Assembly (NCBI GenBank): GCA_022646745.1
Contig: CP060262.1
Location: 390,001-422,000 of the forward strand
Origin: Planctomycetales bacterium
GTDB taxonomy: Bacteria; 4484-113; JAFGCY01
Direction: 5' to 3'
DNA length: 32,000 nucleotides
Positions 6,888 to 22,424 of this stretch are shown here, one piece after another. Below the pieces are notes generated by a model. That model saw only the letters and a program-made list of their open reading frames with translations. It was not told the DNA's origin and did no database searches. Made by a program: the position numbers and the translations under genes. The stretch's first letter is position 1. Each line of letters opens with the position of its first letter.

Positions 6888-6893
6888 ATATCC

Positions 6894-6899
6894 ATTTTA
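6894..6899 (-). promoter_or_regulatory. -10 box TAAAAT, 6 nt upstream of the helicase GTG
   Basis: Plus strand ATTTTA at 6894-6899, spacer 6888-6893, GTG at 6887..6885. Confidence 0.45.
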
Positions 6900-6930
6900 C
6901 AGGCAGGAAACGGGTGTATAGGGGAAGTGG

Positions 6931-7662: not shown

Positions 7663-7668
7663 GGGGAG

Positions 7669-8013
7669 CTAGTGTCCCCCCGCGGACTGCCAGCCGCGGA
7701 TCTTCGCCTCACAGCGCTCGTCGCAGAGATCGGCGATCTCGGAGAGCGAGCCGACGGCCGCTTCCGGATTGGCGATCTCCGAGCGCGGGCCGACGATGGC
7801 CTGGAAGCAGGGCAGGTCGTCCACGTTGCCCGGGTCGGACAGCGAGGGATAGGACACCAGCAGCTTGACGAGGTCGTCCACGTCCTCGAACAGGGTGACG
7901 AGGCGGCGGTGCCCGGCGACGCGGCCCGGCTCGAACTCCTGTTCGGCGATGCGCTTCATCACGCCGAAGTTGAGCGGATGCACCGGGGTGAAGTAGAGCT
8001 TCTCAGCGATCAT
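7669..8013 (-). CDS. Hypothetical protein (114 aa), family not recognised
   Basis: Clean ORF with GC-rich third positions like its neighbours, directly upstream of the SDR gene. TAGAAT (8028..8023) lies 9 nt upstream of the ATG. Confidence 0.55.
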   Translation of the reverse strand: MIAEKLYFTPVHPLNFGVMKRIAEQEFEPGRVAGHRRLVTLFEDVDDLVKLLVSYPSLSDPGNVDDLPCFQAIVGPRSEIANPEAAVGSLSEIADLCDERCEAKIRGWQSAGGH

Positions 8014-8022
8014 GATGGAGTA

Positions 8023-8028
8023 ATTCTA
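8023..8028 (-). promoter_or_regulatory. -10 box TAGAAT, 9 nt upstream of the ATG of the 114-aa ORF (very short leader)
   Basis: Plus strand ATTCTA at 8023-8028, ATG at 8013..8011. Confidence 0.4.
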
Positions 8029-8030
8029 CA

Positions 8031-8137
8031 GCAGAGAGCAGGGAGCAGAGAGCGGAAAGCAGGCTGAGCTAGCAGAGAGCTGAGAGCAGATAGCGGAGTG
8101 GGCTTGCAGAGAGCAGATAGCTGATAGCAGACTGATG
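8031..8137. repeat. Degenerate heptamer microsatellite (GCAGAGA-like, about 15 units)
   Basis: GCAGAGAGCAGGGAGCAGAGAGCGGAAAGCAGGCTGAGCTAGCAGAGAGCTGAGAGCAGATAGCGGAG... A short inverted counterpart CTGCTATCTGCTTTCTGCTTTCTGC is at 8305-8329. Confidence 0.75.
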
Positions 8138-8449
8138 TACTTCCACCTGCAAGCTTCGCTGCGCTCGGGCAGCAGTTTCGCCATGTGCAGCGGCTTTCTA
8201 AACGCGGAGTCGCGGAGACGCAGAGAATAAAGGAGAAGAGAAATCCAACGCTGGGTCGCTGGGGCGCTGGGAATCTCTAAACGAACAAGTTCCGGCTGCC
8301 GGGTCTGCTATCTGCTTTCTGCTTTCTGCAAACCGTCGGATTGCTTCGCTGCGCTCGGGTCACAGAACGGCAGTGTGTAACGGTTCTCTTAACGCGAAGG
8401 CGCGAAGACGCGAAGCGTTTCAAGGAGGGAAATATCAAATCTGAAATCC

Positions 8450-8746
8450 GTATCGGCGCTGCCCGGCAGCGCCAGCGCGCGTGATGCTGCGAAAGGGCAA
8501 GCCCTTGCGCGAGTGAGACTTCTTTACAGGAGAAACTGACTGCCTGAAAGGGAAGTAGGGATGGGGTAACACCCCATCCCGGTGGCGGTATTACCGCCAC
8601 CCTACTTCAAACTACAGTTCAAGCCAGTGTTGCTTTGAACCACCAAGCCACAAGAACACCAGGGCTTATGACAATCCCTACCTAGCGCAAGGTGGTGCGC
8701 ACGAAGAATCAGCTCGCGTGCTGGCGTCGCCGGGCGACGCCGGTAC
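8450..8746 (+). repeat. Inverted-repeat-bounded ~297-nt unit (family B, copy 1) containing Y element type 1
   Basis: Left end GTATCGGCGCTGCCCGGCAGCGCCAGCGCGCGTGATGCTG. The reverse complement of the right end is GTACCGGCGTCGCCCGGCGACGCCAGCACGCGAGCTGAT. Collinear with 10816-11105. Confidence 0.7.
8552..8608 (+). repeat. Y-shaped element type 1, copy 2
   Basis: GAAGTAGGGATGGGGTAACACCCCATCCCGGTGGCGGTATTACCGCCACCCTACTTC. Confidence 0.85.
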
Positions 8747-8864
8747 ATTATTAATGAAAGTTGATTCCATAAACGGAAGAAAAACTCTTTGTGCTCTGTG
8801 CTCTCTGTGGTTGGAATCTCAGAGTGCTCCTCTTACTCGTTGTGCGACTCGCGCCGCACCTCCG

Positions 8865-9191
8865 TCAGCTAAAAAGCTGAGCCAGCAACTCAGTATGCTG
8901 GCGTTCGCAAACTTCGCCGCAGGCGCGGAACAGTTCCTTTAAGTCGATCCAGTCATCCAGTTCCTCGTCCGTCGCCACATGCGCGATGAACCACTCCGGG
9001 TAGGCCGCAGCGTCATGGCGGCGCTGGACCAGCACGCCGAACAGGTAGTCCCCCGCCGGGTTGCGCATCACGAGCATGCGGCGCATGAGCTGCGGGTGCA
9101 GCGTGCAGTCCTCCGCGAACTGCTGGTAGACCAGCTCCGTTGTCAGCTCGAAATCCGGGCGGTGCTCGAAGCGCAGCTCGAACTCAGGCAT
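8865..9191 (-). CDS. Hypothetical acidic protein (108 aa), translationally coupled to xseA
   Basis: ATG 9191..9189 overlaps the xseA stop (sense ATGCCTGA). The longer ORF-track version (to 9332) would run 140 nt inside xseA. The product MPEFELRFEHRPDFEL... is not recognisable and is not XseB-like. Confidence 0.55.
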   Translation of the reverse strand: MPEFELRFEHRPDFELTTELVYQQFAEDCTLHPQLMRRMLVMRNPAGDYLFGVLVQRRHDAAAYPEWFIAHVATDEELDDWIDLKELFRACGEVCERQHTELLAQLFS

Positions 9192-10530
9192 CGCCGTCCT
9201 CGCGGCGCACGCGCATTTCACCGGCCGCCGGCTGCACGCGCAGCACTTCACCGGGGGCCACGTTCGCGGCATCACGTACGAGGCTGCCATCCTCACGCCA
9301 GACGAGCGAGAAGCCCAGCCCGAGCGGGGCACGCGGGTCGAGCGCCTTCAGGTGCTTCTCCATGTTGCCAACGCGCTGCCGGGCATCCTCGCTGGCATTG
9401 CGCGTAAGTCTGAGGAATTCGGCGGACAGGCGCGGCAGGCGGTAGGCATCCTCCTCCATGCGGCGCATCGTGAGCGTTGCCATCCTGTCCAGGAGCTCGC
9501 CGTGGCGGCCCTCGCTGCCGAGCCCGCTGTATTCCACGGCCAGCTCCGCCAGCTCATTGCCAAGCTCATCCAGGCGCTGGCTGCGCTCCTCCACGCTGCC
9601 CGCCACATCACGCAGCAGGCGGTGGTCGAACAGGCGCTTCAGGCGCTCGTTCGCATTGCCGAGGTTGTTGCGCAGCTCACGCACCAGCCGGCCGGTGCGG
9701 TCGCCGATCGCGCCGCGCAGCTCATTGACATCGGGGGTCACGACCTCGGCCGCGGCACTGGGGGTCGGGGCGCGGAAGTCGGCGACGAAGTCCACGATGG
9801 TGAAGTCGATCTCATGCCCGACGCCGGTGATCACCGGCGTCTCGATCTCCGCCAGCACACGCGCCAGCTTCTCGTCATTGAAGCACCAGAGGTCCTCGAG
9901 GCTGCCGCCGCCGCGCACGAGCAGGATGCTGTCGAGGCCGGGGAAACGGTCGGCGGCCTGCAGCGAGGCGATGATCTCGGGCGCTGCCTTGTCACCCTGC
10001 ACGCTGCAGGGGAAGAGCACGACCTCCATGTAGGGCGCACGGCGCCTGAGCACGTTCAGCACATCCTGCAGGGCAGCGGTGGCGATGCCGGTCACGATGC
10101 CGATGCGGCCGGCCACGGCGGGGGGGCGCAGCTTGCGTTCCGGGGAGAACAGGCCCTCGCCGTCGAGCTTGCGCTTGAGCGCTTCGAACTGGGCGGCGAG
10201 GTCGCCCTGCCCGCTCTTGATGATGTCGTCACAGATGATCTGGTAGTTGCCGCCCTTCGGGTAGACGCGCACGTCGCCATGCACCATCACGGCGTCGCCG
10301 TCGGCGGGCGGGCGGGCCTTGCGACGGCCGAAGCCGAACCAGGCGCAGGTGATCTGGCTGTCGGCGTCCTTCAGCGTGAAGTAGAGGTGGCCGCTGCCAG
10401 CGAGGCGCACATTGGAGGCCTCGCCCTTGACCCAGACGCTGCGCAGCTCGGAGTCGCTCTCGAGCAGCTGCTTGATGCGCGCGGTCAGGCGCGAGACGGT
10501 GATTTCGGAGTGGGCCGTGCTTCCTTCCAC
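9184..10530 (-). CDS. xseA: Exodeoxyribonuclease VII large subunit
   Basis: N-terminal OB-fold signature ITVSRLTARIKQLLESD..VWVKGEASNVRLAGSGHLYFTLKDADSQITCAWF, the catalytic core GIVTG..GAALQD..RGGGSLEDLWCFNDE, and a helical tail. GTG start with TATAAT 6 nt upstream. Confidence 0.9.
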   Translation of the reverse strand: MEGSTAHSEITVSRLTARIKQLLESDSELRSVWVKGEASNVRLAGSGHLYFTLKDADSQITCAWFGFGRRKARPPADGDAVMVHGDVRVYPKGGNYQIICDDIIKSGQGDLAAQFEALKRKLDGEGLFSPERKLRPPAVAGRIGIVTGIATAALQDVLNVLRRRAPYMEVVLFPCSVQGDKAAPEIIASLQAADRFPGLDSILLVRGGGSLEDLWCFNDEKLARVLAEIETPVITGVGHEIDFTIVDFVADFRAPTPSAAAEVVTPDVNELRGAIGDRTGRLVRELRNNLGNANERLKRLFDHRLLRDVAGSVEERSQRLDELGNELAELAVEYSGLGSEGRHGELLDRMATLTMRRMEEDAYRLPRLSAEFLRLTRNASEDARQRVGNMEKHLKALDPRAPLGLGFSLVWREDGSLVRDAANVAPGEVLRVQPAAGEMRVRREDGDA

Positions 10531-10536
10531 GGACTG

Positions 10537-10542
10537 ATTATA
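10537..10542 (-). promoter_or_regulatory. -10 box TATAAT, 6 nt upstream of the xseA GTG
   Basis: Plus strand ATTATA at 10537-10542, spacer 10531-10536, GTG at 10530..10528. Confidence 0.5.
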
Positions 10543-10604
10543 GAGGGGAGGCGACTCGCTGCGCTCGAATGGCGGAGAGGCAGGATGCAGTCACGAAGCC
10601 TATG

Positions 10605-10706
10605 AGTCAATGAGTCAATGTGTCAAGGAGTCAAGGAGTCAATGATTGGCGGCGTGATTCTCTCAAACGGATGTTGTTGACTGATTGACTATGTGACTAA
10701 GTGACT
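10605..10706. repeat. Third copy of the AGTCAA/TTGACT word palindrome (5 + 4 units)
   Basis: AGTCAATGAGTCAATGTGTCAAGGAGTCAAGGAGTCAATG ... GTTGACTGATTGACTATGTGACTAAGTGACT. Confidence 0.85.
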
Positions 10707-10815
10707 GCTGAATTGGCTCGCTTGCGCTCGAATGGCAACGAGGTATTCAGGGCGGTTTTATTAACACGGAGTCGCGGAGGGAATTCAAGGAGAAGAAACT
10801 TCACAATGAATATCC

Positions 10816-11105
10816 GTACCGGCGCTGCCCGGCAGCGCCAGCGCGCGTGATGCTGCAAAAGGACAAACCCTTGCACTAGTGAGATTTCGTGGCGAGAGAA
10901 GCTGATTGCCTAAAGGGAAGCAGGGATGGGGTAAGGCCCCATTTGCGGTGTCGGTATTACCGCCACACTACTTCAGACAGTTATCCAAGCCGTCTTTGTT
11001 CCTAAACCACCAAGCCACCAGGGGAAATGACAATCCCTGCCTCGCGCAGCGTGGTGCGCACGCAGTATCAGCTCGCGTGCTGGCGGCACCTGGTGCCGCC
11101 GGTAC
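10816..11105 (+). repeat. Inverted-repeat-bounded ~290-nt unit (family B, copy 2)
   Basis: The left end GTACCGGCGCTGCCCGGCAGCGCCAGCGCGCGTGATGCTG matches copy 1 at every position except one (GTATCGG in copy 1 versus GTACCGG here). The right end is ...GCGTGCTGGCGGCACCTGGTGCCGCCGGTAC. Confidence 0.7.
10917..10974 (+). repeat. Y-shaped element type 1, copy 3 (degenerate)
   Basis: GAAGCAGGGATGGGGTAAGGCCCCATTTGCGGTGTCGGTATTACCGCCACACTACTTC. Several stem positions are mispaired. Confidence 0.7.
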
Positions 11106-11118
11106 TGATTATCCTGAC

Positions 11119-11139
11119 CTGTTTCTCATTCTGATTCTG
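11119..11139. repeat. Inverted copy of the hexamer-word block
   Basis: CTGTTTCTCATTCTGATTCTG is the exact reverse complement of CAGAATCAGAATGAGAAACAG at 24842-24862. Confidence 0.85.
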
Positions 11140-11172
11140 CTTCTTCTGACAACTGACAACTGACAACTGAAT

Positions 11173-11224
11173 GGAGTGTTGGTCTCAGACCAACAGGGCC
11201 CTGTAGCTCTCAGAGCTACACTCC
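11173..11224. repeat. Y-shaped element type 2 (outer stem GGAGTGT/ACACTCC with two inner hairpins), copy downstream of lipoprotein paralog 3
   Basis: GGAGTGT TGGTC-TCA-GACCA ACAGGGCCCT GTAGCTC-TCA-GAGCTAC ACTCC. Confidence 0.85.
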
Positions 11225-11272
11225 GATTCTGACCACCGACCACTACTCCGGCGCGACCCGGCCGTGACCAAT

Positions 11273-14200
11273 TCAGAACTGTGGATTGTACTTCTGCTTG
11301 AGCCAGCCGATGATGTTCTGCAGCATGTCGGCGCGGGTCATCCCCGGCGGCTCCGACTCAGTGATGTTGACAGCGGCCCAGGGGTAGCCGACCACCCAGT
11401 GGCGGGTGTTGCCGTGGTTGCTGATTGCGTAGTTTGGCCAGAACCCAAGATCACGGTATGGGGCAACTGTAGTTCCCCAGCTCAGGTGTCCCAACCAGTA
11501 GCCATCGGCCTGTTGCTGGGGCGCGAGACCGAGCGACAGGCCTGGCAGGATGAAGAATGGGTCATCGTAGTATCCGATTCCTGTGTATTGCAAGCCAGTG
11601 CCAACGCTGAGCTGTGTCGCATGTTTTCCACTCGATCCATCCAGCAGGTAGTTCTCCCCTGACTTGCTCCAACTGTTTGAACGTCCCAGGAAGCCGAAGT
11701 CAGCGTTGAAACTGGAGGGAGCGGAACTGAAGTATTTTCCGGCACCCAACCCAGTTCCATCATCCGTGACCACGGCGGATGCCCAGCAATGCCTGTATTC
11801 CTGCTGAGGCACTGCATACGGAAGTGGAATGACATCGTAGTAGTACTCCCACCCGCCGAGCAAACCCAGGTCAGGAAAGTCATTGACCTTGGAGTTGTTC
11901 TGGCTCATCATCAGCATCGGCCGGCCCTGCTCAAGGATGGCGATGTAGTTGTCAATCTCAGCCGTAGTCCACATCGTCTCCTGGCGCGGCTCGATGGCAT
12001 CCGCCGGCCCGCCCCTGTACCAGAGGACGAGGAAGTGCCCGTGCGGCTGCAGGTCTGCCAGGATGCTGTCCGTGTACGGAATGACCTGCCAGTCCAGCCC
12101 GAGGCTGTCCAGGTCGGCTGTCAGCGCGGTGAGGTTGGCATCATAGCTGCCACCGTCATTGCGGATGATGGCGACATCGAAATCGCCACCGTAGACCACG
12201 ATGTCCTTCGTGACCGCCATCGACCCGACTTCATTGAAGCCGGCGAGGCTGACGGGATGGCTGCCGGGGCCAAGGCCGTCCAGCTGGACCTGCAGCTGGT
12301 CGACAAACTCATAGATGCCGTCATTGTCAACATCCCAGGCGAAGTAGTCAATCGCCGGGGAACCCTGCAGTGTTGTGACATCAAGGGTGACCGACAGCTC
12401 CTCATCCCCCAGCCGGGAGGGAGGATCGATGCTGAAGCCCAGCTCCATTGAGGCGCTGGGCACGAGGATCGTCTGGTACTCGATCGGCAGATCCTGCTTC
12501 AGGTACATCCTGATCCAGAACTGGGCGGAACCGCTGTTGATCTGTGCCTGGCCCGAGTAATCAAACGGCTCGACCAGGCTTTCATTGGAGAAACCCGGCC
12601 CGGACAGGCGAACATCTTCCACAAGGCCGTCCGGGTCAACAAGGTCCAGGCTGTATTCAAGTTCATACGGCCGGAAGTCGATCTCCGGGTTGAATTCGTG
12701 CATGTAGTATGGCGCCGTCAGGCAACTGGCAATCACCGGCTCGCTGATGGCCGCATTGCCAAACTTGTCACGCACCTCAAGCTGGACGGAAGTCTCAGAA
12801 CTGCCTGTGCAGCTGAACTGCCAGCTGCTGTCCGTGATGAAGCCGCCCTGCGGGATGCCGTCAAGCAGCAGCCGGCAGACCGGACTGGCACCCCAGAGGT
12901 TCGCCCGCCGTACTGTGAAATCCGCCGGCGCCAGCAGGACATCGTCATCCAGCACAGCTGTGACACTGGGCCAGGGATGCAGCTGCACGGTGCTGTCTGC
13001 CTCCCGGTACAGCCCATCAGTACCCAGCACCCTGAGGCGCACGGAATGCAGCTTGGCAATCTCAGGCGTGTATTCAAATGGCTCAGCCCCGCCGGTGACC
13101 TGCACTGCTTCCGGCTGTGAGTCCACATACCAGGCGTACTGCACGACTTCAGTGGTACCCCCAGTTATTGGTGTGAATGTGAAGCTGTGCGGTGCCACGG
13201 CCTCGCTTTCGCTCGGTTCAATGGCGACCGTCACCAGGCCCTCCAGGCTGAAGCTACTGAGCGCTTCAGAGCTGGCGCCGTCGCCGTCCGTAACGCGCAG
13301 CCGCACAAGGGAAGTGCCACCCATGAAGCCGGCGTCCAGCTGGGCAGCGGCATCGGCAAGCTCGAACTCGCCGTCGCCATCGAGGTCCCAGTCGTAGCTG
13401 GCAATCCCGCCGTCCCAGTCCGAACTGGCGGAGGCATCGAAGCTGACCGTATATGGCTCCGGGCCTTCCCCGACTTTATAGCTGAACTCCGCCTGCGGCA
13501 GGGCATTCAGCCTGTAACTGGCCAGCTTGCCGGGCTGCCCTTCAGTGCCTGAGCCTGCATCCCAGGCCGTGACGTAATACTCCATCGTCCCGGCTGTTGC
13601 CAGCTCATCCACATATGTGAAATCCCGGATGTCCCGCCGTGCCGCCTTCAGGAGGAAGGTCACATCACTCTCCGGCCCGCCCGGCCCCGGCAGCAGCTCA
13701 GTCTTCGCCAGCAGCGGAATGTGCCGGTACAGGCGGTAGCCCGTGATCCGCTCCTTCCAGTGCTGGGCGATCACTGTCACATCGGCGAGGCCGACCAGTC
13801 CATCCGCGTTGCCATCGATGTGAGAAAGAGTCCAGTTGTGGCTGCCGACGGAGTTGTCATCGCGGTCCCCGGCCGGCCAGTATATAAGTCCATCCGCTTC
13901 CTCCTCCGGCAGGTAGCTGACCTTCTCATTCCAGTGGATCGCCAGCGGTACAAGGTCGGAGGCGTTGACCTCACCGTTGCCATCGTAATCGCCCGGCAGG
14001 CGGGCCGTCCAGCTCAGTTCGATGCGGTTGAGCTGTTCATTCACATCGGAGACGCGCTTCGCCTGGAGGGTGAACACCTCCGTCCCCGCGGCCGGGGCAG
14101 CACTGGCATTGCGCTCGGTCCCGAGCCGCTCCAGTTCAGCAGCAAGGAACTGCTCCAGCTCTGAGAAGTCGGCTGCTTCAGGTGCAGTGGATTCGACAGC

Positions 14201-14380
14201 AGGCTGTATTGCATTGTCAGGTTGGCCAGCCGGTGACTGTCCGCGCAGGCTGTGAGGTTCCGCCCTGCCCTGCCGCGCCAGTTCACCACTGCCGGAGGAA
14301 CAGGCTGCCAGGCACAGCGCAAGCAGGGCCAGCAGGCCCGCTGCCAGACGCATCGACAAGTTGTCAGAACTGCGGGTCAT
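11273..14380 (-). CDS. Large secreted lipoprotein, paralog 3 of 3: lipobox signal, dockerin-like Ca-binding loops, FN3-like module, PKD/Ig-like repeats, C-terminal alpha/beta domain with variable insert
   Basis: 1035 aa. MRLAAGLLALLALCLAAC lipobox. GDYDGNGEVNASDLVPL and DGNADGLVGLADVTVIAQHW (dockerin/EF-hand-like). GYRLYR...YYVTAWD (FN3-like). FDASASSDWDGGIASYDWDLDGDGEFE...LRVTDGDG (PKD). An alternative start at ATG 14353 (MRLAAG...) would remove the overlap with the upstream gene. Confidence 0.85.
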   Translation of the reverse strand: MTRSSDNLSMRLAAGLLALLALCLAACSSGSGELARQGRAEPHSLRGQSPAGQPDNAIQPAVESTAPEAADFSELEQFLAAELERLGTERNASAAPAAGTEVFTLQAKRVSDVNEQLNRIELSWTARLPGDYDGNGEVNASDLVPLAIHWNEKVSYLPEEEADGLIYWPAGDRDDNSVGSHNWTLSHIDGNADGLVGLADVTVIAQHWKERITGYRLYRHIPLLAKTELLPGPGGPESDVTFLLKAARRDIRDFTYVDELATAGTMEYYVTAWDAGSGTEGQPGKLASYRLNALPQAEFSYKVGEGPEPYTVSFDASASSDWDGGIASYDWDLDGDGEFELADAAAQLDAGFMGGTSLVRLRVTDGDGASSEALSSFSLEGLVTVAIEPSESEAVAPHSFTFTPITGGTTEVVQYAWYVDSQPEAVQVTGGAEPFEYTPEIAKLHSVRLRVLGTDGLYREADSTVQLHPWPSVTAVLDDDVLLAPADFTVRRANLWGASPVCRLLLDGIPQGGFITDSSWQFSCTGSSETSVQLEVRDKFGNAAISEPVIASCLTAPYYMHEFNPEIDFRPYELEYSLDLVDPDGLVEDVRLSGPGFSNESLVEPFDYSGQAQINSGSAQFWIRMYLKQDLPIEYQTILVPSASMELGFSIDPPSRLGDEELSVTLDVTTLQGSPAIDYFAWDVDNDGIYEFVDQLQVQLDGLGPGSHPVSLAGFNEVGSMAVTKDIVVYGGDFDVAIIRNDGGSYDANLTALTADLDSLGLDWQVIPYTDSILADLQPHGHFLVLWYRGGPADAIEPRQETMWTTAEIDNYIAILEQGRPMLMMSQNNSKVNDFPDLGLLGGWEYYYDVIPLPYAVPQQEYRHCWASAVVTDDGTGLGAGKYFSSAPSSFNADFGFLGRSNSWSKSGENYLLDGSSGKHATQLSVGTGLQYTGIGYYDDPFFILPGLSLGLAPQQQADGYWLGHLSWGTTVAPYRDLGFWPNYAISNHGNTRHWVVGYPWAAVNITESEPPGMTRADMLQNIIGWLKQKYNPQF

Positions 14381-17300
14381 AATCCACCTTCAGCCAGGCG
14401 ATGATGTTCTGCAGCATGTCGGCGCGGGTCATCCCCGGCGGCTCCGACTCAGTGATGTTGACAGCGGCCCAGGGGTAGCCGATGACCCAATGGCGGGTTG
14501 ATCCGTGATCAGAGAAATTCCTGCCTGGCCAGGTACCAATATTACGATAGGGGGAGAAGTAGCTGCCCCAGCTGAAATGAGCCAGCTTGTAACCACTTAA
14601 CTCTTCCAGCGGAGTAAGACCAGTCGTTGCATAAAGGACTGTCTCCGAGTGGAAACCTTCCTCATAAAGGCCGATGCCGCAATATTGCAGGCCATCCGGC
14701 ATCTCAATCTGGCTGGCCCGGTACCCGGAGCTGCCTTCTTCGTTGTAACTTTCAACCCGCCACTTTGATGCTTCCCTGCTTGTCAATGTGCCCAGGTCTG
14801 CAGTGAAGCTCTGCGGTGATGTCGGGAAGAACTGGCCCTTCTCGAATCCAATGCCGTCATCCGTGACGACACTTGAAGCCCAGGCGTGCCTGGATTCCTC
14901 AAATGGAAGTGTATAGGCCTGCAAATCTGCTCCGTAGAAGAATTCCCAGCCACCAAACCAATCTAGTGGATGGTGATCTGTCAGCTTGGAGTTGTTCTGG
15001 CTCATCATCAGCATCGGCCGGCCCTGCTCAAGGATGGCAATGTAGTTGTCAATCTCAGCCTCAGCCCACATCGTCTCCTGGCGCGGCTCGATGGCATCCG
15101 CCGGCCCGCCCCTGTACCAGAGGACGAGGAAGTGCCCGTGCGGCTGCAGGTCTGCCAGGATGTCGTCCGTGTACGGAATGACCTGCCAGTCCAGCCCGAG
15201 GCTGTCCAGGTCGGCTGTCAGCGCATTGAGGTTGGCATCGTAGCTGCCACCTTCATTGCGAATGATGGCGACATCGAAATCCCCACCGTAGACCACGATG
15301 TCCTTCGTGACAGCCTTCGACCCGACTTCATTGAACCCGGCGAGGCTGACGGGATGGCTGCCGGGGCCAAGGCCGTCCAGCTGGACCTGCAGCTGGTCGA
15401 CAAACTCATAGATGCCGTCATTGTCAACATCCCAGGCGAAGTAGTCAATCGCCGGGGAACTCTGCAGTGTTGTGACATCAAGGGTGACCGACAGCTCATC
15501 ATCTCCCAGCCGGGACGGGGGATCGCTGCTGAAGTCCAGCTCCATTGTGGCACTGGGCACGAGGATCGTCTGGTACTCGATCGGCAGATCCTGCTTCAGG
15601 TACATCCTGATCCAGAACTGGGCGGAACCGCTGTTGATCTGTGCCTGGCCCGAGTAATCAAACGGCTCGACCAGGCTTTCATTGGAGAAACCCGGCCCGG
15701 ACAGGCGAACATCTTCCACAAGGCCGTCCGGGTCAACAAGGTCCAGGCTGTATTCAAGTTCATACGGCCGGAAGTCGATCTCCGGGTTGAATTCGTGCGT
15801 GTAGTATGGCGCCGTCAGGCAACTGGCAATCACCGGCTCGCTGATGGCCGCATTGCCAAACTTGTCACGCACCTCAAGCTGGACGGAAGTCTCTGAGCTT
15901 TCCGCGCAGCTGAACTGCCAGCTGCTGTCCGTGATGAAGCCGCCCTGCGGGATGCCGTCAAGCAGCAGCCGGCAGACCGGACTGGCACCCCAGAGGTTCG
16001 CCCGCCGTACTGTGAAATCCGCCGGCGCCAGCAGGACATCGTCATCCAGCACAGCTGTGACACTGGGCCAGGGATGCAGCTGCACGGTGCTGTCTGCCTC
16101 CCGGTACAGCCCATCAGTACCCAGCACCCTGAGGCGCACGGAATGCAGCTTGGCAATCTCAGGCGTGTATTCAAATGGCTCAGCCCCGCCGGTGACCTGC
16201 ACTGCTTCCGGCTGCGCATCCACGTACCAGGCGTACTGCACAACTTCCGTCGTTCCACCGATCAGCGGAGTGAAGATGAAGCTGTGCGGTGCCACGGCTT
16301 CGCTTTCGCTCGGTTCAATGGCGACCGTCACAAGGCCCTTCAGGCTGAAGCTCCTGAGCGCTTCAGAGCTGGCGCCGTCGCCGTCCGTAACGCGCAGCCG
16401 CACAAGGGAAGTGCCACCCATGAAGCCGGCGTCCAGCTGGACAGCGGCATCGGCAAGCTCGAACTCGCCGTCGCCATCGAGGTCCCAGTCGTAGCTGGCA
16501 ATCCCGCCGTCCCAGTCCGAACTGGCGGAGGCATCGAAGCTGACCGTGTATGGCTCCGGGCCTTCCCCGACTTTATAGCTGAACTCCGCCTGCGGCAGGG
16601 CATTCAGCCTGTAACTGGCCAGCTTGCCGGGCTGCCCTTCAGTGCCTGAGCCTGCATCCCAGGCCGTGACGTAATACTCAATCGTCCCGGCTGTTGCCAG
16701 TTCGTCCACATAGCTGAAGTCCCGGATGTCCCGCCTTGCAGCCTTGAGGAGGAAAGTCACATCACTCTGCGGCCCGCCTGGGCCCGGCAGCAGTTCAGTC
16801 TTCGCCAGCAGCGGGATGTGCCGGTACAGGCGGTAGCCCGTGATCCGCTCCTGCCAGTGCTGGGCAATCACTGTCACATCGGCGAGGCCGACCAGTCCAT
16901 CCGCGTTGCCATCGATATGCGAAAGCGTCCAGTTGTGGCTGCCGACGGAGTCGTCATCGCGGTCCCCAGCGGGCCAGTATGCAACTCCGCCCGCTTCCTC
17001 CTCCGGCTGGTAGCTGACCTTCTCATTCCAGTGGATCGCCAGGGGCACCAGGTCGGAGCTGTTGACCTCGCCGTTGCCATCGTAGTCACCGGGCAGGCGG
17101 GCCGTCCAGCTCAGTTCGATCCGGTTGAGCTGCTCGTTCACATCGGAGACGCGCTTCGCCTGGAGGGTGAACACTTCCGTCCCCGCGGCTGGCGCGGCAC
17201 TGGCATTGCGCTCAGTCCCGAGCCGCTCCAGCTCATCAGTGAGGAACTGCTCCAGCTCTGAGAAGTCGGCTGCAGCAGGTGCAGTGGATTCGACAGCAGG

Positions 17301-17477
17301 CTGTATAGCATTGTCAGGTTGGCCAGCCGGTGACTGTCCGCGCAGGCTGTGAGGTTCCGCCCTGCCCTGCTGCGCCAGTTCACCACTGCCGGAGGAACAG
17401 GCGGCCAGGCACAGCGCAAGCATGGCCAGCAGGCCCGCCGCCAGACGCATCGACAAGTTGTCAGAACTGCGGGTCAT
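14364..17477 (-). CDS. Large secreted lipoprotein, paralog 2 of 3 (same architecture as paralog 3)
   Basis: 1037 aa. By eye it differs from paralog 3 at roughly one residue in twenty over the first ~830 aa and again matches over the last ~45 aa, but is strongly divergent in between. Alternative start at ATG 17450. Confidence 0.85.
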   Translation of the reverse strand: MTRSSDNLSMRLAAGLLAMLALCLAACSSGSGELAQQGRAEPHSLRGQSPAGQPDNAIQPAVESTAPAAADFSELEQFLTDELERLGTERNASAAPAAGTEVFTLQAKRVSDVNEQLNRIELSWTARLPGDYDGNGEVNSSDLVPLAIHWNEKVSYQPEEEAGGVAYWPAGDRDDDSVGSHNWTLSHIDGNADGLVGLADVTVIAQHWQERITGYRLYRHIPLLAKTELLPGPGGPQSDVTFLLKAARRDIRDFSYVDELATAGTIEYYVTAWDAGSGTEGQPGKLASYRLNALPQAEFSYKVGEGPEPYTVSFDASASSDWDGGIASYDWDLDGDGEFELADAAVQLDAGFMGGTSLVRLRVTDGDGASSEALRSFSLKGLVTVAIEPSESEAVAPHSFIFTPLIGGTTEVVQYAWYVDAQPEAVQVTGGAEPFEYTPEIAKLHSVRLRVLGTDGLYREADSTVQLHPWPSVTAVLDDDVLLAPADFTVRRANLWGASPVCRLLLDGIPQGGFITDSSWQFSCAESSETSVQLEVRDKFGNAAISEPVIASCLTAPYYTHEFNPEIDFRPYELEYSLDLVDPDGLVEDVRLSGPGFSNESLVEPFDYSGQAQINSGSAQFWIRMYLKQDLPIEYQTILVPSATMELDFSSDPPSRLGDDELSVTLDVTTLQSSPAIDYFAWDVDNDGIYEFVDQLQVQLDGLGPGSHPVSLAGFNEVGSKAVTKDIVVYGGDFDVAIIRNEGGSYDANLNALTADLDSLGLDWQVIPYTDDILADLQPHGHFLVLWYRGGPADAIEPRQETMWAEAEIDNYIAILEQGRPMLMMSQNNSKLTDHHPLDWFGGWEFFYGADLQAYTLPFEESRHAWASSVVTDDGIGFEKGQFFPTSPQSFTADLGTLTSREASKWRVESYNEEGSSGYRASQIEMPDGLQYCGIGLYEEGFHSETVLYATTGLTPLEELSGYKLAHFSWGSYFSPYRNIGTWPGRNFSDHGSTRHWVIGYPWAAVNITESEPPGMTRADMLQNIIAWLKVDYDPQF

Positions 17478-20400
17478 AGTCCACCTTCAGCCAGCCGATG
17501 ATGTTCTGCAGCATGTCCGCGCGTGTCATGCCGGGCGGCACCGAATCAGCGATATCTACTGCCGCCCATGGGAAGCCTACAACCCACTGGCGTGTGTTGC
17601 CATGGTCACTGAAGCTGTAGTTCGGCCAGTGGCCCATATTGCGGTATGGAGTCTGGGTCCCACCCCAGCTGCCATAGACCAGGTTGAAGCCGTTCTGCAA
17701 CGGAGTGACAACCAATCCAGTGATTCCACTGGGGGGAACCGGCTCAAGGAAATCATTGCTGTATGCCGTGCAGCTTAGTTGCAGGCCTGGTTCAAGAACA
17801 ATCTGCTTGACGGAGTACCCAGAGCTGCCTGGGCCACCATACTTTTCCGCAGTATAGTCAAAATCCCAGATAGTTCTGTCGATCATCCCAGTCACATCCC
17901 CGGAGAAGCTTACCGGGGCAAACTCAAACCACTGATTGGTTCCGAATCCGGTGTATCTGTCACACATCAGCGCCTGCGCCCAAATTAAGCGATGCTCATC
18001 TGCATCAACAACAGCATCCTGGATGTCTGCGTTGAAAAAGGTTTCATATCCGCCGGACCATTCCGGATGTTCTGACGGCCTTGTGCTGTTCTGGCTCATC
18101 ATCAGCATCGGCCGGCCCTGCTCTAGGAGCGCGATGTAGTTGTCAATCTCCGCCGTGGTCCACATCGTCTCCTGGCGCGGCTCGATGGCATCCGCCGGAC
18201 CGCCGCGGTACCACAGCACCACGAAGTGCCCGTGGCTGAGCAGATCACTGGCAATGCTGTCCGAGTACGGGAATTCCTGCCAGCTCAGGGCAAGTGAGTC
18301 AAGGTCGTCCTTGATTGCGTCAATGTTCGTGCTGTATGTCCCGCCGTCGTTGCGGATGATGGCGACATCCGTCTCAACCGGCCAGACCTGCATGGTATGG
18401 CTGAAGGAGCGTGTGTCGCCAATGGAGTTCTCCACTTCCAGCCTGACTTCATGAATACCGGGCTCCAGCCAATTGGTAGTGAAGTGGAATTCATTCAAAT
18501 TGGAGCCATAGCCACCGTTCACAAACCACTCATGACTGCGTATGGATGGGTACCCATCGTATTCCGTGATGTCCACTTCCGCATTGACCCCACTGCCCAT
18601 GTATGACTCCGGCGTAATGCTGAAGTCAGCAAGGATGTACCCCGAATCAAAGTAATAATCAGTTGCCAGGTCAGGATACTGGAACATGTCAAGCGTCAGT
18701 CTGAAGTACGGCCAGTTTGACTGGCCTGCTCCTTCGCTTGTGTTATATGTTCCACCTTTAAGCGAGACACTCTTGTCAGGATCCGTGTCTCCATTTGGCA
18801 ATCTGACGAGGATCTGGTTCACCAGGTTGTCAGGATCGTCAATTTCAGTGATCTGCCAGTTTATGTCAAACGGATATGTCCCGATCTTCGGATCGTATTC
18901 GAAGGTGATGTCAGGCAGTACCTGTGCCTTCACTGTGTAGGCCTTGCTCAGTGCCGTGTTGCCGAACTTGTCAATCGCCTCGACCTGCAGCTCCGCACTG
19001 CCTCTCTCCTGCAGCACGTACAGCCAGCTTGTCTGCTGGTTGAATTCACCCTGCGGGTTGCCATCCACCACGAGACGGAAAAGCGGGTCCGCACCGCTGG
19101 AGGCGGTGACACTCTGGGTGAATGTCGCTGGTGCCAGACCATATGCACTTTCCGGCCTGGCTGTGACACTGACTTCCGCATGGCACTGCAGCAACAGGCT
19201 GGCTTCGCGGTAGATGCCGTCCTCGCCCTTCACCTTGAGGCGCGCGGTAGTTGATTCCGGGGAATTGAGAGTGAACTGTTTCGGCTCCGGCGTGAATTCC
19301 AGTGCGACCGGCGTCTCATCCGCACCTTCATACCATTCATACTGCACAGCCGGCATGCTGCCGCTGACAACAGGATTGACGGTGAAGGTATGCGGGGTAA
19401 TGGCCTCGGATTCGTCCACCTGCAGCTGCACATTCAGCAGGGAGGGCAGCAGGATGTTGCGGCTCAGCACGGTCTGCCCGCCCTGGTCATCGGTCACCCG
19501 CAGCTGGATGAGCGGGAAGCCCGCCGGCAGCACCGCCTCGATCTCGGCTGAGTCCGCCGCATCGGCAAACTCGCCGTCGCCATCGAGGTCCCATGCGTAA
19601 CTGACGATCTCACCGTCAGGATCATTGCTGCCCAGCGCGCTGAAGGAGAGCGTATAGGGTTCGTCCTCCACGAGGATCTCGTAGTCAAACTCCGCGATCG
19701 GCTGCATGTTGACGAGGTAGGAGGCGATGTTGCCTTCCGGTGCTTCCGTGTCTGTGAACTCGTCCCAGGCGCGCACCGTGTACTGATAGCTGCCGGGGAT
19801 GCCGACACTGTCAATGTAGGCATACTCCCGCAGGACCGGGTCGTCCGCCTCGCGGCTGACACTGATCGGGCTGTCCTCCACGTCCGGCATCGGCAGCAGC
19901 ACCCCGTTGCCAAGCTCCAGGTTGCGGCGGTAGATGCGGTAGCCGGTGTAGCGCTGCTTCCAGTGCTGCGCGATCACCGTCACGTCGGCCATGCCAACCA
20001 CGCCGTCATGGTTGCCATCAACATAGCTCGCCAGCCAGTTCTGCCTGCCAAGCGAATTGTCATGCCGGTCACCCGCCGGGAAGTGGTCGATGCCGCTTTC
20101 CTCCACAGGCAGGTAGGAAACCTGCTGGCCCCAGCGCTGGCCAAGCGGCACGAGGTCGCCGAAGTTCACTTCGCCATTGCCGTCGTAGTCACCGGGCAGG
20201 TGCTTGGTCCAGCGCAGTTCCACCCGGTTGAGCTGCTCACCGGGTCCGGAAACACGGGTGGCCGACAGGTTGAACACCGCGCTGTCGGCACCGGGGGCTT
20301 CGCTGGCCGTGCGCTGCTTCTCCAGGCGCTCCAGTTCAGCAAGCAGGAAGTTCTCGATCCGCTCAATGTCGCATTCGCCGCCGGAGCTAGCGGTCGGATC

Positions 20401-20637
20401 CACCGCTGCCGTATCCGAGTCGTCCTGCGCATTATCCGCAGCACCGTTCGTGATCACTTCCCCGTGTACGGTCAGCAGCTGGGAACTCTGGTTATTGGCA
20501 TCAAGTGAGCTGGACTTACTGCCGCCGCAGGATGCAAGCAGTAAAAGCAGCAGGCAGGCAGCAGCCAGCCGTGATGGAAGGAGCACGCGTGCAGCAGAAT
20601 TCGCCGTGTGCATCTTTTCAGCACTGATTTCAGCCAT
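17461..20637 (-). CDS. Large secreted lipoprotein, paralog 1 of 3 (more divergent copy, same domain order)
   Basis: 1058 aa. LLLLLLASCGG lipobox, GDYDGNGEVNFGDLVPL and DGNHDGVVGMADVTVIAQHW, a PKD block (SNDPDGEIVSYAWDLDGDGEF...LRVTDDQGG), and the conserved C-terminal HGHFVVLWYRGGPADAIEPRQETMWTTAEIDNYI and GMTRADMLQNIIGWLKVDYDPQF. SD-like GGGGGA precedes ATG 20637; ATG 20613 is an alternative. Confidence 0.85.
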   Translation of the reverse strand: MAEISAEKMHTANSAARVLLPSRLAAACLLLLLLASCGGSKSSSLDANNQSSQLLTVHGEVITNGAADNAQDDSDTAAVDPTASSGGECDIERIENFLLAELERLEKQRTASEAPGADSAVFNLSATRVSGPGEQLNRVELRWTKHLPGDYDGNGEVNFGDLVPLGQRWGQQVSYLPVEESGIDHFPAGDRHDNSLGRQNWLASYVDGNHDGVVGMADVTVIAQHWKQRYTGYRIYRRNLELGNGVLLPMPDVEDSPISVSREADDPVLREYAYIDSVGIPGSYQYTVRAWDEFTDTEAPEGNIASYLVNMQPIAEFDYEILVEDEPYTLSFSALGSNDPDGEIVSYAWDLDGDGEFADAADSAEIEAVLPAGFPLIQLRVTDDQGGQTVLSRNILLPSLLNVQLQVDESEAITPHTFTVNPVVSGSMPAVQYEWYEGADETPVALEFTPEPKQFTLNSPESTTARLKVKGEDGIYREASLLLQCHAEVSVTARPESAYGLAPATFTQSVTASSGADPLFRLVVDGNPQGEFNQQTSWLYVLQERGSAELQVEAIDKFGNTALSKAYTVKAQVLPDITFEYDPKIGTYPFDINWQITEIDDPDNLVNQILVRLPNGDTDPDKSVSLKGGTYNTSEGAGQSNWPYFRLTLDMFQYPDLATDYYFDSGYILADFSITPESYMGSGVNAEVDITEYDGYPSIRSHEWFVNGGYGSNLNEFHFTTNWLEPGIHEVRLEVENSIGDTRSFSHTMQVWPVETDVAIIRNDGGTYSTNIDAIKDDLDSLALSWQEFPYSDSIASDLLSHGHFVVLWYRGGPADAIEPRQETMWTTAEIDNYIALLEQGRPMLMMSQNSTRPSEHPEWSGGYETFFNADIQDAVVDADEHRLIWAQALMCDRYTGFGTNQWFEFAPVSFSGDVTGMIDRTIWDFDYTAEKYGGPGSSGYSVKQIVLEPGLQLSCTAYSNDFLEPVPPSGITGLVVTPLQNGFNLVYGSWGGTQTPYRNMGHWPNYSFSDHGNTRQWVVGFPWAAVDIADSVPPGMTRADMLQNIIGWLKVDYDPQF

Positions 20638-20677
20638 TGATTCCCCCAGGAGTTAGCCGGTGGTTAAACCCAGTGTA

Positions 20678-20685
20678 AATATACT
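20678..20685. promoter_or_regulatory. Overlapping divergent -10-like hexamers (TATACT on plus, TATATT on minus) between lipoprotein paralog 1 and the 20782 gene
   Basis: AAATATACT core. It is the only AT-rich block in the 144-nt divergent spacer. Confidence 0.3.
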
Positions 20686-20781
20686 TACCTGCCGTGGGGC
20701 GGATGTCAAGCGAGACGGGATGCCGCGCTTGTGAAACTATGGCCCGCGCGGGCCAGTCCTACAGCGGGGAGGTTATGCGGC

Positions 20782-21684
20782 ATGGATGAGGACATCGCAC
20801 GCTTTGAAGCACGCCGGACACGCGGCTGCCGCTGCTGCGGCTGGCTGCTGCTGGCTGGCCTGCTCGGGCTGGGCCTGATCATGTGGGGTGACTACAGCAG
20901 GTCGAAACGGATGGCGGAGACCATGAACACGGATGAGCTGATGAGCACCGAACAGGTGGAGCAGTTCATCGCCGAGAATGACATCAAGGTCAAGCACGAG
21001 GATGGTGAGTGGAAGGCCGAGCCCCCCTGGAAGCAGCCGATCGTGGACCAGCTGCGTGACCGCTTCGAGGACCTCGCCAGTGAGGAACGCATTGCCGAGA
21101 TGAAGCAGCGCGCCGAGGACAGCCGGCTGTACATCCGCAGCCTGCTGGACAAGTCGCCGGAGGAGCTGCGGCCTAAGCTGGATGAACTGAAGGAGCAGAT
21201 CGCCAACCTGACGGACCGTGAGACGGTGCGCGAGGCGATCGAGAAGGTGTCCGAACTGGACGGCGAATGGGTGGAGGAAGAGGCCCAGCGCCTGCTGGAC
21301 AGTAAACCAGGGGAGAACATCGAGCTGTATGTGTCGAAGCTGCAGGCGATGCTGGAGAACGTCAAGGATGAGGACTTGCGGCAGAAGCTGCGTGATGCAA
21401 TAGACGAGCAGCTGGGACAGCAGCAGCAGCAGGCCGAGCGCGGTGAGCTGCCGGACATCAACCCGGAGACTGGTGAAGTGCCCCTTGTGCTGGCATACCT
21501 GAAGGAACACAAGGATCCGCGCAAACCCGTGGACTGGAGCTTCGTGAAGGAAGTGGAGCTGGACGACGGCCCGGCCTACAGCGTGGATGTGATCTTTGGA
21601 GATGGTACGGAGACGACCTACTACATCCGCGGTGGCGAAGTGGTGCTGGTGGCGACGCGGGACAAGGCTGCAGATGACGCCTGA
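20782..21684 (+). CDS. Hypothetical membrane-anchored, charged coiled-coil-like protein (300 aa)
   Basis: ATG 20782 is preceded by GGAGG (20768-20772) at 9 nt, and I prefer it over the GTG at 20731. One N-terminal TM segment (CCGWLLLAGLLGLGLIMWG) is followed by an E/K/R/L-rich sequence. No family recognised. Confidence 0.6.
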   Translation: MDEDIARFEARRTRGCRCCGWLLLAGLLGLGLIMWGDYSRSKRMAETMNTDELMSTEQVEQFIAENDIKVKHEDGEWKAEPPWKQPIVDQLRDRFEDLASEERIAEMKQRAEDSRLYIRSLLDKSPEELRPKLDELKEQIANLTDRETVREAIEKVSELDGEWVEEEAQRLLDSKPGENIELYVSKLQAMLENVKDEDLRQKLRDAIDEQLGQQQQQAERGELPDINPETGEVPLVLAYLKEHKDPRKPVDWSFVKEVELDDGPAYSVDVIFGDGTETTYYIRGGEVVLVATRDKAADDA

Positions 21685-21884: not shown

Positions 21885-22424
21885 GTGCGCGAAATGCTGC
21901 AGAGCGGGATTGACGATGCACCGCAGGATGCGCCTGAGCCGGAAGTGATCGTGGTGCGCGAGCCGGTGGTGATCGATGGCGGCGGCCGGCAGTATTCACA
22001 CCGCGAGCGGGCCAGCTCCTGCTACATCAACCGCTCCTGCCCGACCTGCGCACCATGCTGCCTGGCAATGTTCCTGGCGCCGATGATCTTCCTGTTGTGG
22101 ACGCTGTACCCCGGCTGGAAGCAGTCGCGTGAGATCGCGCGCTACAGCAGCCGTGAGGCCAGCCAGCAGGCCGAGAGCCAACCCGACCCTGCCAGCGACC
22201 GCCTGTTGTCAGAGGTGCGCGAACTGGAGTTTGACAGTCGCACGGCGGTCGAGGCCTTCATCGAGGAACGTGGAATTGCCTATTCGCGACGCGAGGACGG
22301 CTACTGGATCGCATCAGACCGTACGCAGCAGGCTGCTTTGGTGGTGCTGCAGCAGCGCTGGATGGAACTGCCGGAGGATCCTGACGGGGATGAAGCAGTG
22401 ACTGACGATGCAGCGGATGAATAA
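21885..22424 (+). CDS. Hypothetical membrane protein. The reading frame is open from 21678 and encodes a CxxC-N10-CxxC zinc ribbon upstream of this GTG, so the true start is probably upstream and non-canonical.
   Basis: ORF-track GTG start. One TM segment (CCLAMFLAPMIFLLWTLY) and an acidic tail. See the finding on 21678-21884. Confidence 0.6.
   Translation: MREMLQSGIDDAPQDAPEPEVIVVREPVVIDGGGRQYSHRERASSCYINRSCPTCAPCCLAMFLAPMIFLLWTLYPGWKQSREIARYSSREASQQAESQPDPASDRLLSEVRELEFDSRTAVEAFIEERGIAYSRREDGYWIASDRTQQAALVVLQQRWMELPEDPDGDEAVTDDAADE

Follow-up and report, generated by a model that had tools for sequence, protein, structure and literature searches.

What could three adjacent genes for large, similar proteins with predicted lipid anchors do for a bacterium, when the C-terminal domain of their products matches no sequence profile? 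We addressed this question in a stretch of 32,000 nucleotides (nt) from a genome labelled Planctomycetales bacterium, which belongs to an uncultured wastewater bacterium of the candidate phylum UBP7 (contig CP060262.1, positions 390,001 to 422,000; hereafter the window, in whose numbering positions are given). Three minus-strand open reading frames (ORFs) stand in series at 11273-20637, and their products of 1035, 1037 and 1058 amino acids (aa), here called paralogs 1, 2 and 3, confirm an earlier note made from the letters of the sequence, which had described three head-to-tail paralogs of ~1040 aa and proved right on nearly every point. Paralogs 1 and 2 are 87% identical and paralogs 1 and 3 are 44% identical at the aa level; as judged from the sequences, such similarity among three adjacent ORFs of more than 1000 aa cannot be chance. 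Paralog 3 is identical to P0005 (MCB1219933.1/UNM08760.1), which is labelled 'hypothetical protein'. We rejected the possibility that the assembly had duplicated one gene into paralogs 1 and 2, as the two differ at ~4% of nucleotides and each has its own divergent insert. On present evidence, the array belongs to a real, taxonomically narrow gene family of predicted surface proteins, in which a known fold is represented by a new domain family; it is not a categorically new system. The features discussed below are listed in Table 1.

The C-terminal domain (C-domain) of ~310 aa was modelled by AlphaFold with high confidence (predicted local distance difference test, pLDDT, 92; predicted template-modelling score, pTM, 0.92) from an alignment of 29 family sequences. 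When this model was compared with the PDB using Foldseek, the top matches were TrpG, PabA and the amidotransferase subunit of GuaA (7d97), with E values of 4.5e-4 to 7e-3, probabilities of 0.98-1.00 and template-modelling (TM) scores for the target of ~0.6 (TrpG 1qdl_B, E 4.5e-4, TM 0.59; PabA 8rp2, E 6.2e-4). Later PDB matches, to DJ-1/PfpI, flavodoxin and CheY, were partial. In the viral library BFVD, the best match was a Pandoravirus aminodeoxychorismate synthase, a PabA/B fusion (E 8.3e-5). Because the model is confident and these structures match it, the predicted fold of the C-domain is class-I glutamine-amidotransferase-like with ~150 extra residues. Thus the GATase1-type fold suggested by the earlier note stands, but its closest structures are TrpG, PabA and GuaA and not ThuA.

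Sequence profiles do not name the C-domain, which agrees with its description as unassignable by motif. Searches with the whole proteins gave no Pfam or NCBIfam match to it, nor did a Pfam search at E values up to 10 with 29 domain sequences; a profile search of all PDB sequences found nothing, and hhalign gave 1.4% probability against E. coli PabA. Several members of the superfamily share the fold without glutamine-amidotransferase chemistry, namely ThuA-like proteins, DUF4350, GldG/IFT52 'GIFT' domains, the beta-galactosidase middle domain and the S51/S66 peptidases, and some of these are extracytoplasmic. None of them was among the top 20 Foldseek matches of the C-domain; a chain of the IFT-B1 entry 8bd7, which we take to be IFT52, was at rank 21. 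Further, the profiles of these families gave no significant match: the ThuA-like profile (PF06283) gave none at all, and the DUF4350 profile (PF14258) matched one of 29 members at an E value of 0.04, which is not significant.

The C-domain has the same order of elements as the class-I amidotransferases TrpG, PabA and GuaA (beta1-alpha1-beta2-alpha2-beta3-glycine-rich loop-alpha3-beta4-elbow). In contrast to these enzymes, it has Ser in place of Cys at the elbow, no conserved His-Glu and ~150 residues inserted after the elbow. It also has no sequence-profile similarity to them, is predicted to be secreted and lipid-anchored rather than cytoplasmic, and lacks a synthase partner. The equivalence of the WYRGGP loop and of Ser826 to positions of amidotransferases was inferred only from the order of secondary-structure elements.

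Residue conservation was counted in 58 unique family sequences (47-51 per column). At the elbow (domain position 100), Ser was present in 47/50 sequences, Ala in 2 and Thr in 1, and Cys in none; the following Q101 was present in 50/50. Other conserved residues were G64 and G65 (each 51/51), P66 and W61 (each 50/51), R63 (48/51), E82 (49/51), D30 (48/49), S241 (46/47) and N296 (48/48). No conserved His or Glu was found in the family near the C-terminus of the domain, where the strand end reads G-Y-P-W-A. Since the elbow Cys and a conserved His-Glu are both lacking, the C-domain is, to judge from its sequence, not an amidotransferase, with the Cys-His-Glu triad lost; the earlier note had likewise seen no catalytic dyad. 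The motifs that the earlier note quoted from this domain are present. Near-invariant residues are retained in three loops, R-N-D-G-G-x-Y after beta1, W-Y-R-G-G-P after beta3 and S-Q after beta4. In alpha/beta folds of the GATase1 type, the ligand or active site usually lies in the loops after the parallel strands; these loops of the modelled C-domain therefore probably form a ligand-binding or active site. As far as tested, the R-N-D-G-G-x-Y, W-Y-R-G-G-P, S-Q and G-Y-P-W-A motifs are specific to this domain family.

The elbow Ser raises the alternative that the head is a surface-tethered serine hydrolase or acyl-transferase, built on an amidotransferase elbow with Ser for Cys and a glycine-rich oxyanion loop, in which the insert would set substrate specificity. 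S51 peptidases (dipeptidase E, cyanophycinase) and S66 peptidases (LD-carboxypeptidase) use a Ser nucleophile on the same fold superfamily, and the fold is typical of enzymes with a nucleophile elbow. The frequency of Ser at position 100, the invariant Gln next to it and the invariant GG(P) loop would suit such an enzyme, as would His103 (SQ-x-H-G), which is present in 36/50 family members. However, His103 is replaced by Asn or Ser in the three window paralogs and their closest relatives, and no His or acidic residue is invariant. The residue two before the Ser is Leu, Met or Val and not the small residue typical of elbows. Moreover, no profile of S51, S66 or other peptidases or of esterases matched at E values up to 10, and no S51/S66 structure was among the top 50 Foldseek matches. 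We therefore consider a serine enzyme rather unlikely.

A circularly permuted form of the C-domain was observed in two metagenome-assembled genomes (MAGs), Zod_Metabat.1143 and an 'uncultured Planctomycetales' bin (L012:8282-10915 and L011:63-2726, both on the plus strand). In this form, profile positions ~89-308 (beta4 to the last helix) are directly followed by positions 3-92 (beta1 to alpha3), and the protein stops exactly where alpha3 ends.

Over residues 1-832, paralogs 1 and 2 are 94-97% identical, with a synonymous divergence (dS) of 0.07-0.24. Over residues 833-985, identity falls to 42% with dS saturated, and it returns to 84% at the end. The diverging block is the ~150-aa insert between the elbow Ser and a conserved S-W-G motif. 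Sliding windows against homologs from other MAGs revealed sharp mosaic junctions. Identity between P0002 and paralog 3 is 96-100% over ~400 residues, drops to 48-76% in the stalk between the N-terminal base module and the C-domain, rises to ~91% in the C-domain core, falls again to 23-46% in the insert and finishes at 95%. The base modules of P0003 and P0004 are 94-98% identical, and their stalks are only 27-48% identical; between proteins with N-terminal modules 94-98% identical, stalk identity was 16-48%. Further, the hybrid P0001 consists of paralog 2 (alignment columns 1-650) joined to paralog 1 (columns 650-1070). These comparisons show a conserved base module and a conserved C-domain core; the stalk and the insert, in contrast, are hypervariable and subject to segmental exchange. 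The variable head of the earlier note thus survives in part: the ~150-aa insert varies, but the core of the C-domain is, with the N-terminal module, the most conserved part, and the stalk is variable too.

We read the C-domain head as a non-catalytic surface recognition module whose specificity is tuned by the insert. In its favour are the architecture of the proteins, the fold, the lost triad with a retained conserved site, the rarity and narrow range of the family, the variable insert and the mosaicism, the changing copy number, the other heads found on the base module, and the analogy with BtuH. We give this reading a probability of roughly 0.45. The lipid anchor would tether the protein at the cell surface, and the stalk of immunoglobulin (Ig)-like domains would hold the head off the cell. 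The head would bind an extracellular ligand, possibly a glycan or another polymer. The insert would set the specificity, and the three genes would represent three specificities on one conserved scaffold. Gene duplication, unequal crossover and the recombination of segments, among paralogs as well as among strains, would generate new variants.

Several points weigh against this reading. A single pocket bordered by the insert was deduced from the modelled topology alone. The near-invariant elbow Ser, with the retained glycine-rich loop beside it, is just as suggestive of catalysis in a residual or altered form. Surface exposure is assumed, both for the UBP7 envelope and for lipoprotein sorting in it. 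The mosaicism and the lower GC content at third codon positions (GC3) of the array could result from relaxed constraint and not from diversifying selection. Finally, both the binding of a ligand by the head and the location of the protein are predictions.

The mosaicism also bears on another possibility, that variation itself is the function, with the array serving as an antigenic, phage-receptor or decoy system whose exposed epitopes are altered when its tandem copies recombine. The sharp mosaic junctions, the clean paralog 2/1 hybrid P0001, the copy numbers of 3, 2 and 1 at the syntenic site, the GC3 that is lower than that of neighbours across genomes, and the confinement of the variable segments to the stalk and the head insert are all in its favour. 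Against it, the ORFs scanned around the array included no dedicated variation machinery, be it an invertase, a recombinase, a reverse transcriptase or a silent cassette that lacks a promoter. Each of the three copies is full-length, with its own signal peptide and start. The hybrid in the near-identical MAG L002 may be a collapse of short-read assembly, and the divergence of the insert is ancient (saturated dS) and not that of recent switching. This possibility, which overlaps with a recognition head rather than excluding it, appears distinctly unlikely to us. The role in adhesion, reception or antigenic variation proposed by the earlier note would fit the mosaicism and the variation in copy number. 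A target of a diversity-generating retroelement was considered and rejected: no reverse transcriptase was present among the scanned ORFs, there was no template repeat, and the divergence of the insert is old. The only direct repeats within 10500-21000 were the paralogs themselves.

We next consider the parts of the protein that would carry the recognition head. A lipobox matching the pattern [LVI][ASTVI][GAS]C, preceded by a basic n-region and an h-region of Leu and Ala, was present in all three paralogs, as claimed previously. By this pattern match only, the products are predicted to be lipoproteins and substrates of signal peptidase II. A low-complexity tether of ~40 aa follows the lipobox. 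In the full-length AlphaFold model, which was made for paralog 1 from an alignment of 19 sequences (mean pLDDT 76), residues 1-67 have pLDDT below 50, which fits a disordered signal peptide and tether. The base module then begins with a helix (72-86) and continues as an FN3-like beta-sandwich with strands in 102-126 and 214-291. Three helices are nested in the sandwich (140-148, 178-188 and 199-206), of which the first and the last follow dockerin-type loops. A hidden Markov model of the base module matched 20 or more ORFs of UBP7 loci, and NCBI gives the name 'fibronectin type III domain-containing protein' to P0167, a homolog of the module that stands alone.

The dockerin-type loops, GDYDGNGEVNxxDLVPL and DGNxDGxVGxADVTVIAQHW, occur in all three paralogs, 41-42 aa apart. 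Loop 1 (D131-Y-D-G-N-G-E-V-N-A-S-D142) has Asp or Asn calcium (Ca) ligands at all of positions 1, 3, 5, 9 and 12. Loop 2 (D189-G-N-A-D-G-L-V-G-L-A-D200) has the canonical ligands except at position 9, which is Gly. Across 19 relatives, neither loop varies at positions 1 and 12. The Pfam Dockerin_1 profile (PF00404) scored 17.6, 18.8 and 14.4 bits in the window proteins, below its cut-off of 22.9 bits; two distant relatives of the base module with an unsplit pair scored above it, at 24.2 and 26.5 bits. We conclude that the split dockerin-like pair is real and is nested inside an FN3-like domain near the lipid anchor. The pair resembles type-I dockerin in its two loop-helix repeats with Ca ligands. 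Unlike type-I dockerin, it is interrupted by 41-42 aa, lies within an FN3-like sandwich close to the N-terminus and does not reach the score that Pfam requires. Thus the motifs noted earlier are present in each paralog, but not as an ordinary dockerin.

Such a pair could be taken to dock the proteins in a cohesin-bearing scaffold or S-layer protein, with the array supplying interchangeable subunits of a cellulosome-like assembly. The invariant ligands at positions 1 and 12, the distant relatives that score above the Pfam threshold, and the base module as the part most conserved between lineages (94-98%, P0003 and P0004) speak for docking. However, no cohesin or scaffoldin was present among the flanking window ORFs, and no non-family gene was common to the non-syntenic loci L005-L013. 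The pair is split, nested and sub-threshold in the window proteins, each of which has a predicted lipid anchor of its own. Outside cellulosomal bacteria, dockerin-like modules for which no cohesin partner is known are reportedly common. Further, unlike the loci of cellulosomal dockerin proteins, the window locus has no cohesin or carbohydrate-active enzyme in its scanned flanks. We regard a cellulosome-like assembly as very unlikely.

Between the base module and the C-domain, the model of paralog 1 has a stalk of five all-beta domains over residues 295-730, of which the PKD domain is the first. The PKD profile PF18911 scored 32.6, 31.5 and 35.3 bits in the three paralogs (cut-off 27), in agreement with the single PKD domain reported earlier. 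When the full-length model was searched with Foldseek, only chains with Ig or FN3 domains were matched, for example GhpA, contactins and alpha-2-macroglobulins, which supports the FN3-like module and the further Ig-like repeats of the earlier note. The top matches were to the 'grappling hook' protein GhpA of Aureispira (9fly, 9flp; E ~1e-14 to 1e-15), and both proteins are chains of Ig-like domains. The match covers generic Ig repeats only (TM 0.13-0.27), the end domains are dissimilar, and GhpA spans several thousand residues, to judge from the numbering that its entry titles give.

An Ig-like stalk with a distal binding domain is also found in the SusE/SusF-type proteins of Bacteroidota. A further analogy, and only an analogy, is BtuH, which is reported to have a lipid anchor, a beta-sandwich stalk and a C-terminal globular ligand-binding head (PMC8941943), as the window proteins are predicted to have; it serves as our model of how the window proteins may work. 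BtuH of Bacteroides is described there as binding vitamin B12 directly via its C-terminal domain (PMC8941943). The window proteins differ from BtuH in that the heads are unrelated in sequence or fold, no gene for a TonB-dependent transporter or another partner in uptake lies next to the array, and the phylum is another.

To define the range of the family, we relied on an exhaustive HMMER scan and on a genome scan; a word-indexed search gave 2 matches each for the N-module and profile queries. Among 1.84 billion representative proteins, the HMMER scan with the C-domain found only 47 clusters at E<=1e-3, and all related clusters looked up are labelled 'hypothetical protein'. Proteins of 600-1230 aa carry the domain at their C-terminus, and some of 1300-2100 aa carry it internally. 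The genome scan, with a profile of 9 sequences, found 11 distinct loci. Their titles are 'bacterium isolate UBP7 HKST-UBA01/03', 'bacterium' (AC1.30, SJ870 and Zod_Metabat.1143) and 'uncultured Planctomycetales bacterium'. The UBP7 MAGs are reported to come from a saline activated-sludge plant (PMC8495973). The array is a lineage-specific tandem expansion (1-3 copies), and its gene family was recovered only from MAGs with UBP7 or 'bacterium' titles and from a few with a Planctomycetales label.

The syntenic site lies between the CNNM/hypothetical genes and the uvrD-xseA block. It holds three copies in the window, two in L002 and one in each of two related species (L001/L004 and L003). Thus the array varies among related genomes, and the C-domain matched no characterised enzyme family that has its catalytic residues intact, in keeping with the view of the earlier note that this is more than an ordinary paralog family. 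The single gene of L001 is closest to paralog 3 (79% DNA identity). L002, a MAG 99.2-99.8% identical to the window, carries paralog 3 and a paralog 2/1 hybrid at 6841-13108, which corresponds to the window array minus one 3.1-kb unit. This two-gene form may represent either an unequal crossover or a collapse of short-read assembly. Elsewhere, the family forms further tandem arrays, with four consecutive genes in L005, three in L006 and at least six base-module genes in L009.

A search around the 11 family loci for a partner gene kept in common turned up nothing but additional members of the family, and no non-family gene was common to L005-L013. The base module and PKD stalk also occur with other unannotated C-terminal heads (P0008, P0016, P0017, P0024 and P0030; L009:11112-18822), some of which are propeller-like with Asp-box-like A-x-D-x-x-G-x-x-W repeats or SBBP repeats. 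These sequences would fit a design in which one scaffold carries interchangeable heads. A broader proposal is that UBP7 bacteria have a modular surface-display system with a conserved anchored base, an Ig stalk and interchangeable heads. The commonest head would be a previously undescribed GATase-fold ligand-binding family with natural circular permutants and an insert cassette exchanged between paralogs and strains, and the whole would form a new class of variable receptors. We put this forward as a tentative and still doubtful idea.

At both junctions of the window array, the ORFs in their longest form share 17 nt; the gap of no more than 10 nt given in the earlier note corresponds to an alternative start at Met10. 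At the 14380 junction, the ATG of paralog 1 lies within the upstream codons for ...DYDPQF*, with a Shine-Dalgarno (SD)-like AAGGTGG ahead of it. By analogy with this identical junction, the ATG of paralog 2 is read as lying within the final codons of paralog 3, and paralog 3 itself has an SD-like GGGGGA 5 nt before its ATG. Consensus scans for promoters and terminators inside the array gave background levels only. Because the frames overlap, the starts follow SD-like motifs and these scans were at background, the array genes are likely to be co-transcribed with translational coupling. It was also observed that the start codons of paralogs 1 and 2 arise from the sequence (...GAT TAT GAC...) that encodes the conserved C-terminus of the paralog before them (14351-14380 and 17448-17477, minus strand), so that tandem duplication automatically regenerates a coupled start and the SD-like AAGGTGG.

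The lower GC content of the array, as reported in the earlier note, was borne out: GC3 was 0.72-0.74 in the array genes, compared with 0.86-0.90 for seven genes in the flanks. Overall GC was lowest (0.584) in the first-transcribed gene, paralog 3, and not in paralog 1, which the earlier note had singled out. In other genomes, GC3 of family members was 0.77-0.80 compared with 0.86-0.95 in their neighbours, with one TPR gene of L001 lower (0.69). Horizontal transfer was rejected as the cause, since single-copy orthologs and other arrays in related genomes have the same offset. For the same reason, the low GC3 looks like a property of the family and not a mark of recent import.

The genes flanking the array are housekeeping genes: AAC(3), UvrD, SDR, XseA, a CNNM/CorC transporter, TauE, a Cys/Met PLP enzyme, KsgA, CYTH and MoeA. 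As in the earlier note, the scanned ORFs that flank the array in the window offered no cohesin, glycoside hydrolase, protease or obvious transporter as a partner. The full-length aminoglycoside 3-N-acetyltransferase family gene (2631-3554, minus strand; PF02522, E 1.8e-82) is syntenic in the near-identical MAG L002. Directly upstream of the array lie two divergent ORFs of 317 and 179 aa (20731-21684 and 21885-22424, plus strand), which are syntenic in L001-L004 and have no significant Pfam match. The uvrD-SDR-xseA block of L001 (14123-23057; window 4536-10530) is inverted in order and orientation relative to the family gene, and L001 has extra genes absent from the window, for a TPR protein and a SocA_Panacea-domain protein. 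From the inversion and the extra genes, the site of array expansion is also a point of rearrangement.

Table 1. Positions of the array genes and of their predicted features in the window.
Feature	Paralog	Residues	Position	Strand	Basis or remark
Gene	3	1058 aa	17461..20637	minus	first transcribed; positional ortholog of single-copy gene in related genomes
Gene	2	1037 aa	14364..17477	minus	start shares 17 nt with paralog 3 end
Gene	1	1035 aa	11273..14380	minus	last of array; start shares 17 nt with paralog 2 end
Lipoprotein signal peptide	1		14300..14380	minus	LAAC (Cys27), pattern match
Lipoprotein signal peptide	2		17397..17477	minus	LAAC (Cys27)
Lipoprotein signal peptide	3		20527..20637	minus	LASC (Cys37)
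N-terminal base module	1	~68-295	13496..14179	minus	AlphaFold secondary structure
Split dockerin-like EF-hand pair	1	loop 1, 130-146; loop 2, 189-208	13757..13993	minus	42-aa insert
Split dockerin-like pair	2		16854..17090	minus	
Split dockerin-like pair	3		19960..20193	minus	
PKD domain	1	~292-379	13244..13507	minus	PF18911, E 8.5e-8, 32.6 bits
Four further Ig-like all-beta domains	1	~383-730	12191..13234	minus	AlphaFold, pLDDT 50-93
C-terminal GATase1-fold domain	1	727-1035	11276..12202	minus	AlphaFold and Foldseek
C-terminal GATase1-fold domain	2		14367..15299	minus	
C-terminal GATase1-fold domain	3		17464..18393	minus	
WYRGGP loop after beta3	1	787-792	12005..12022	minus	glycine-rich-loop position of amidotransferases
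WYRGGP loop	2		15102..15119	minus	
WYRGGP loop	3		18196..18213	minus	
Ser826 (domain S100), end of beta4	1	826	11903..11905	minus	nucleophile-elbow position, Cys in amidotransferases
Ser826 equivalent	2		15000..15002	minus	
Ser826 equivalent	3		18094..18096	minus	
Hypervariable beta-rich insert of C-domain	1	~828-966	11483..11899	minus	identity/dS profile
Hypervariable C-domain insert	2		14574..14996	minus	
Hypervariable C-domain insert	3		17671..18090	minus	

The practical value of these results is modest: ~50 clusters that are now 'hypothetical' or 'PKD domain-containing' receive an annotation of fold, boundaries, conserved site and variable insert, and clear expression constructs can be drawn from it, but no long-standing question is resolved. 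If the reading of the C-domain as a recognition head is true, the C-domains would define a domain family that is new, that of secreted modules with the glutamine-amidotransferase fold but no triad, which is absent from Pfam and NCBIfam. It would belong to a modular surface-protein architecture known only from a few uncultured lineages (UBP7 and genomes with 'bacterium' and Planctomycetales titles). Further, the mosaic arrays would mark the cell-surface interactions that are under the strongest diversifying pressure in these bacteria, for which substrates, neighbours and phages are candidates.

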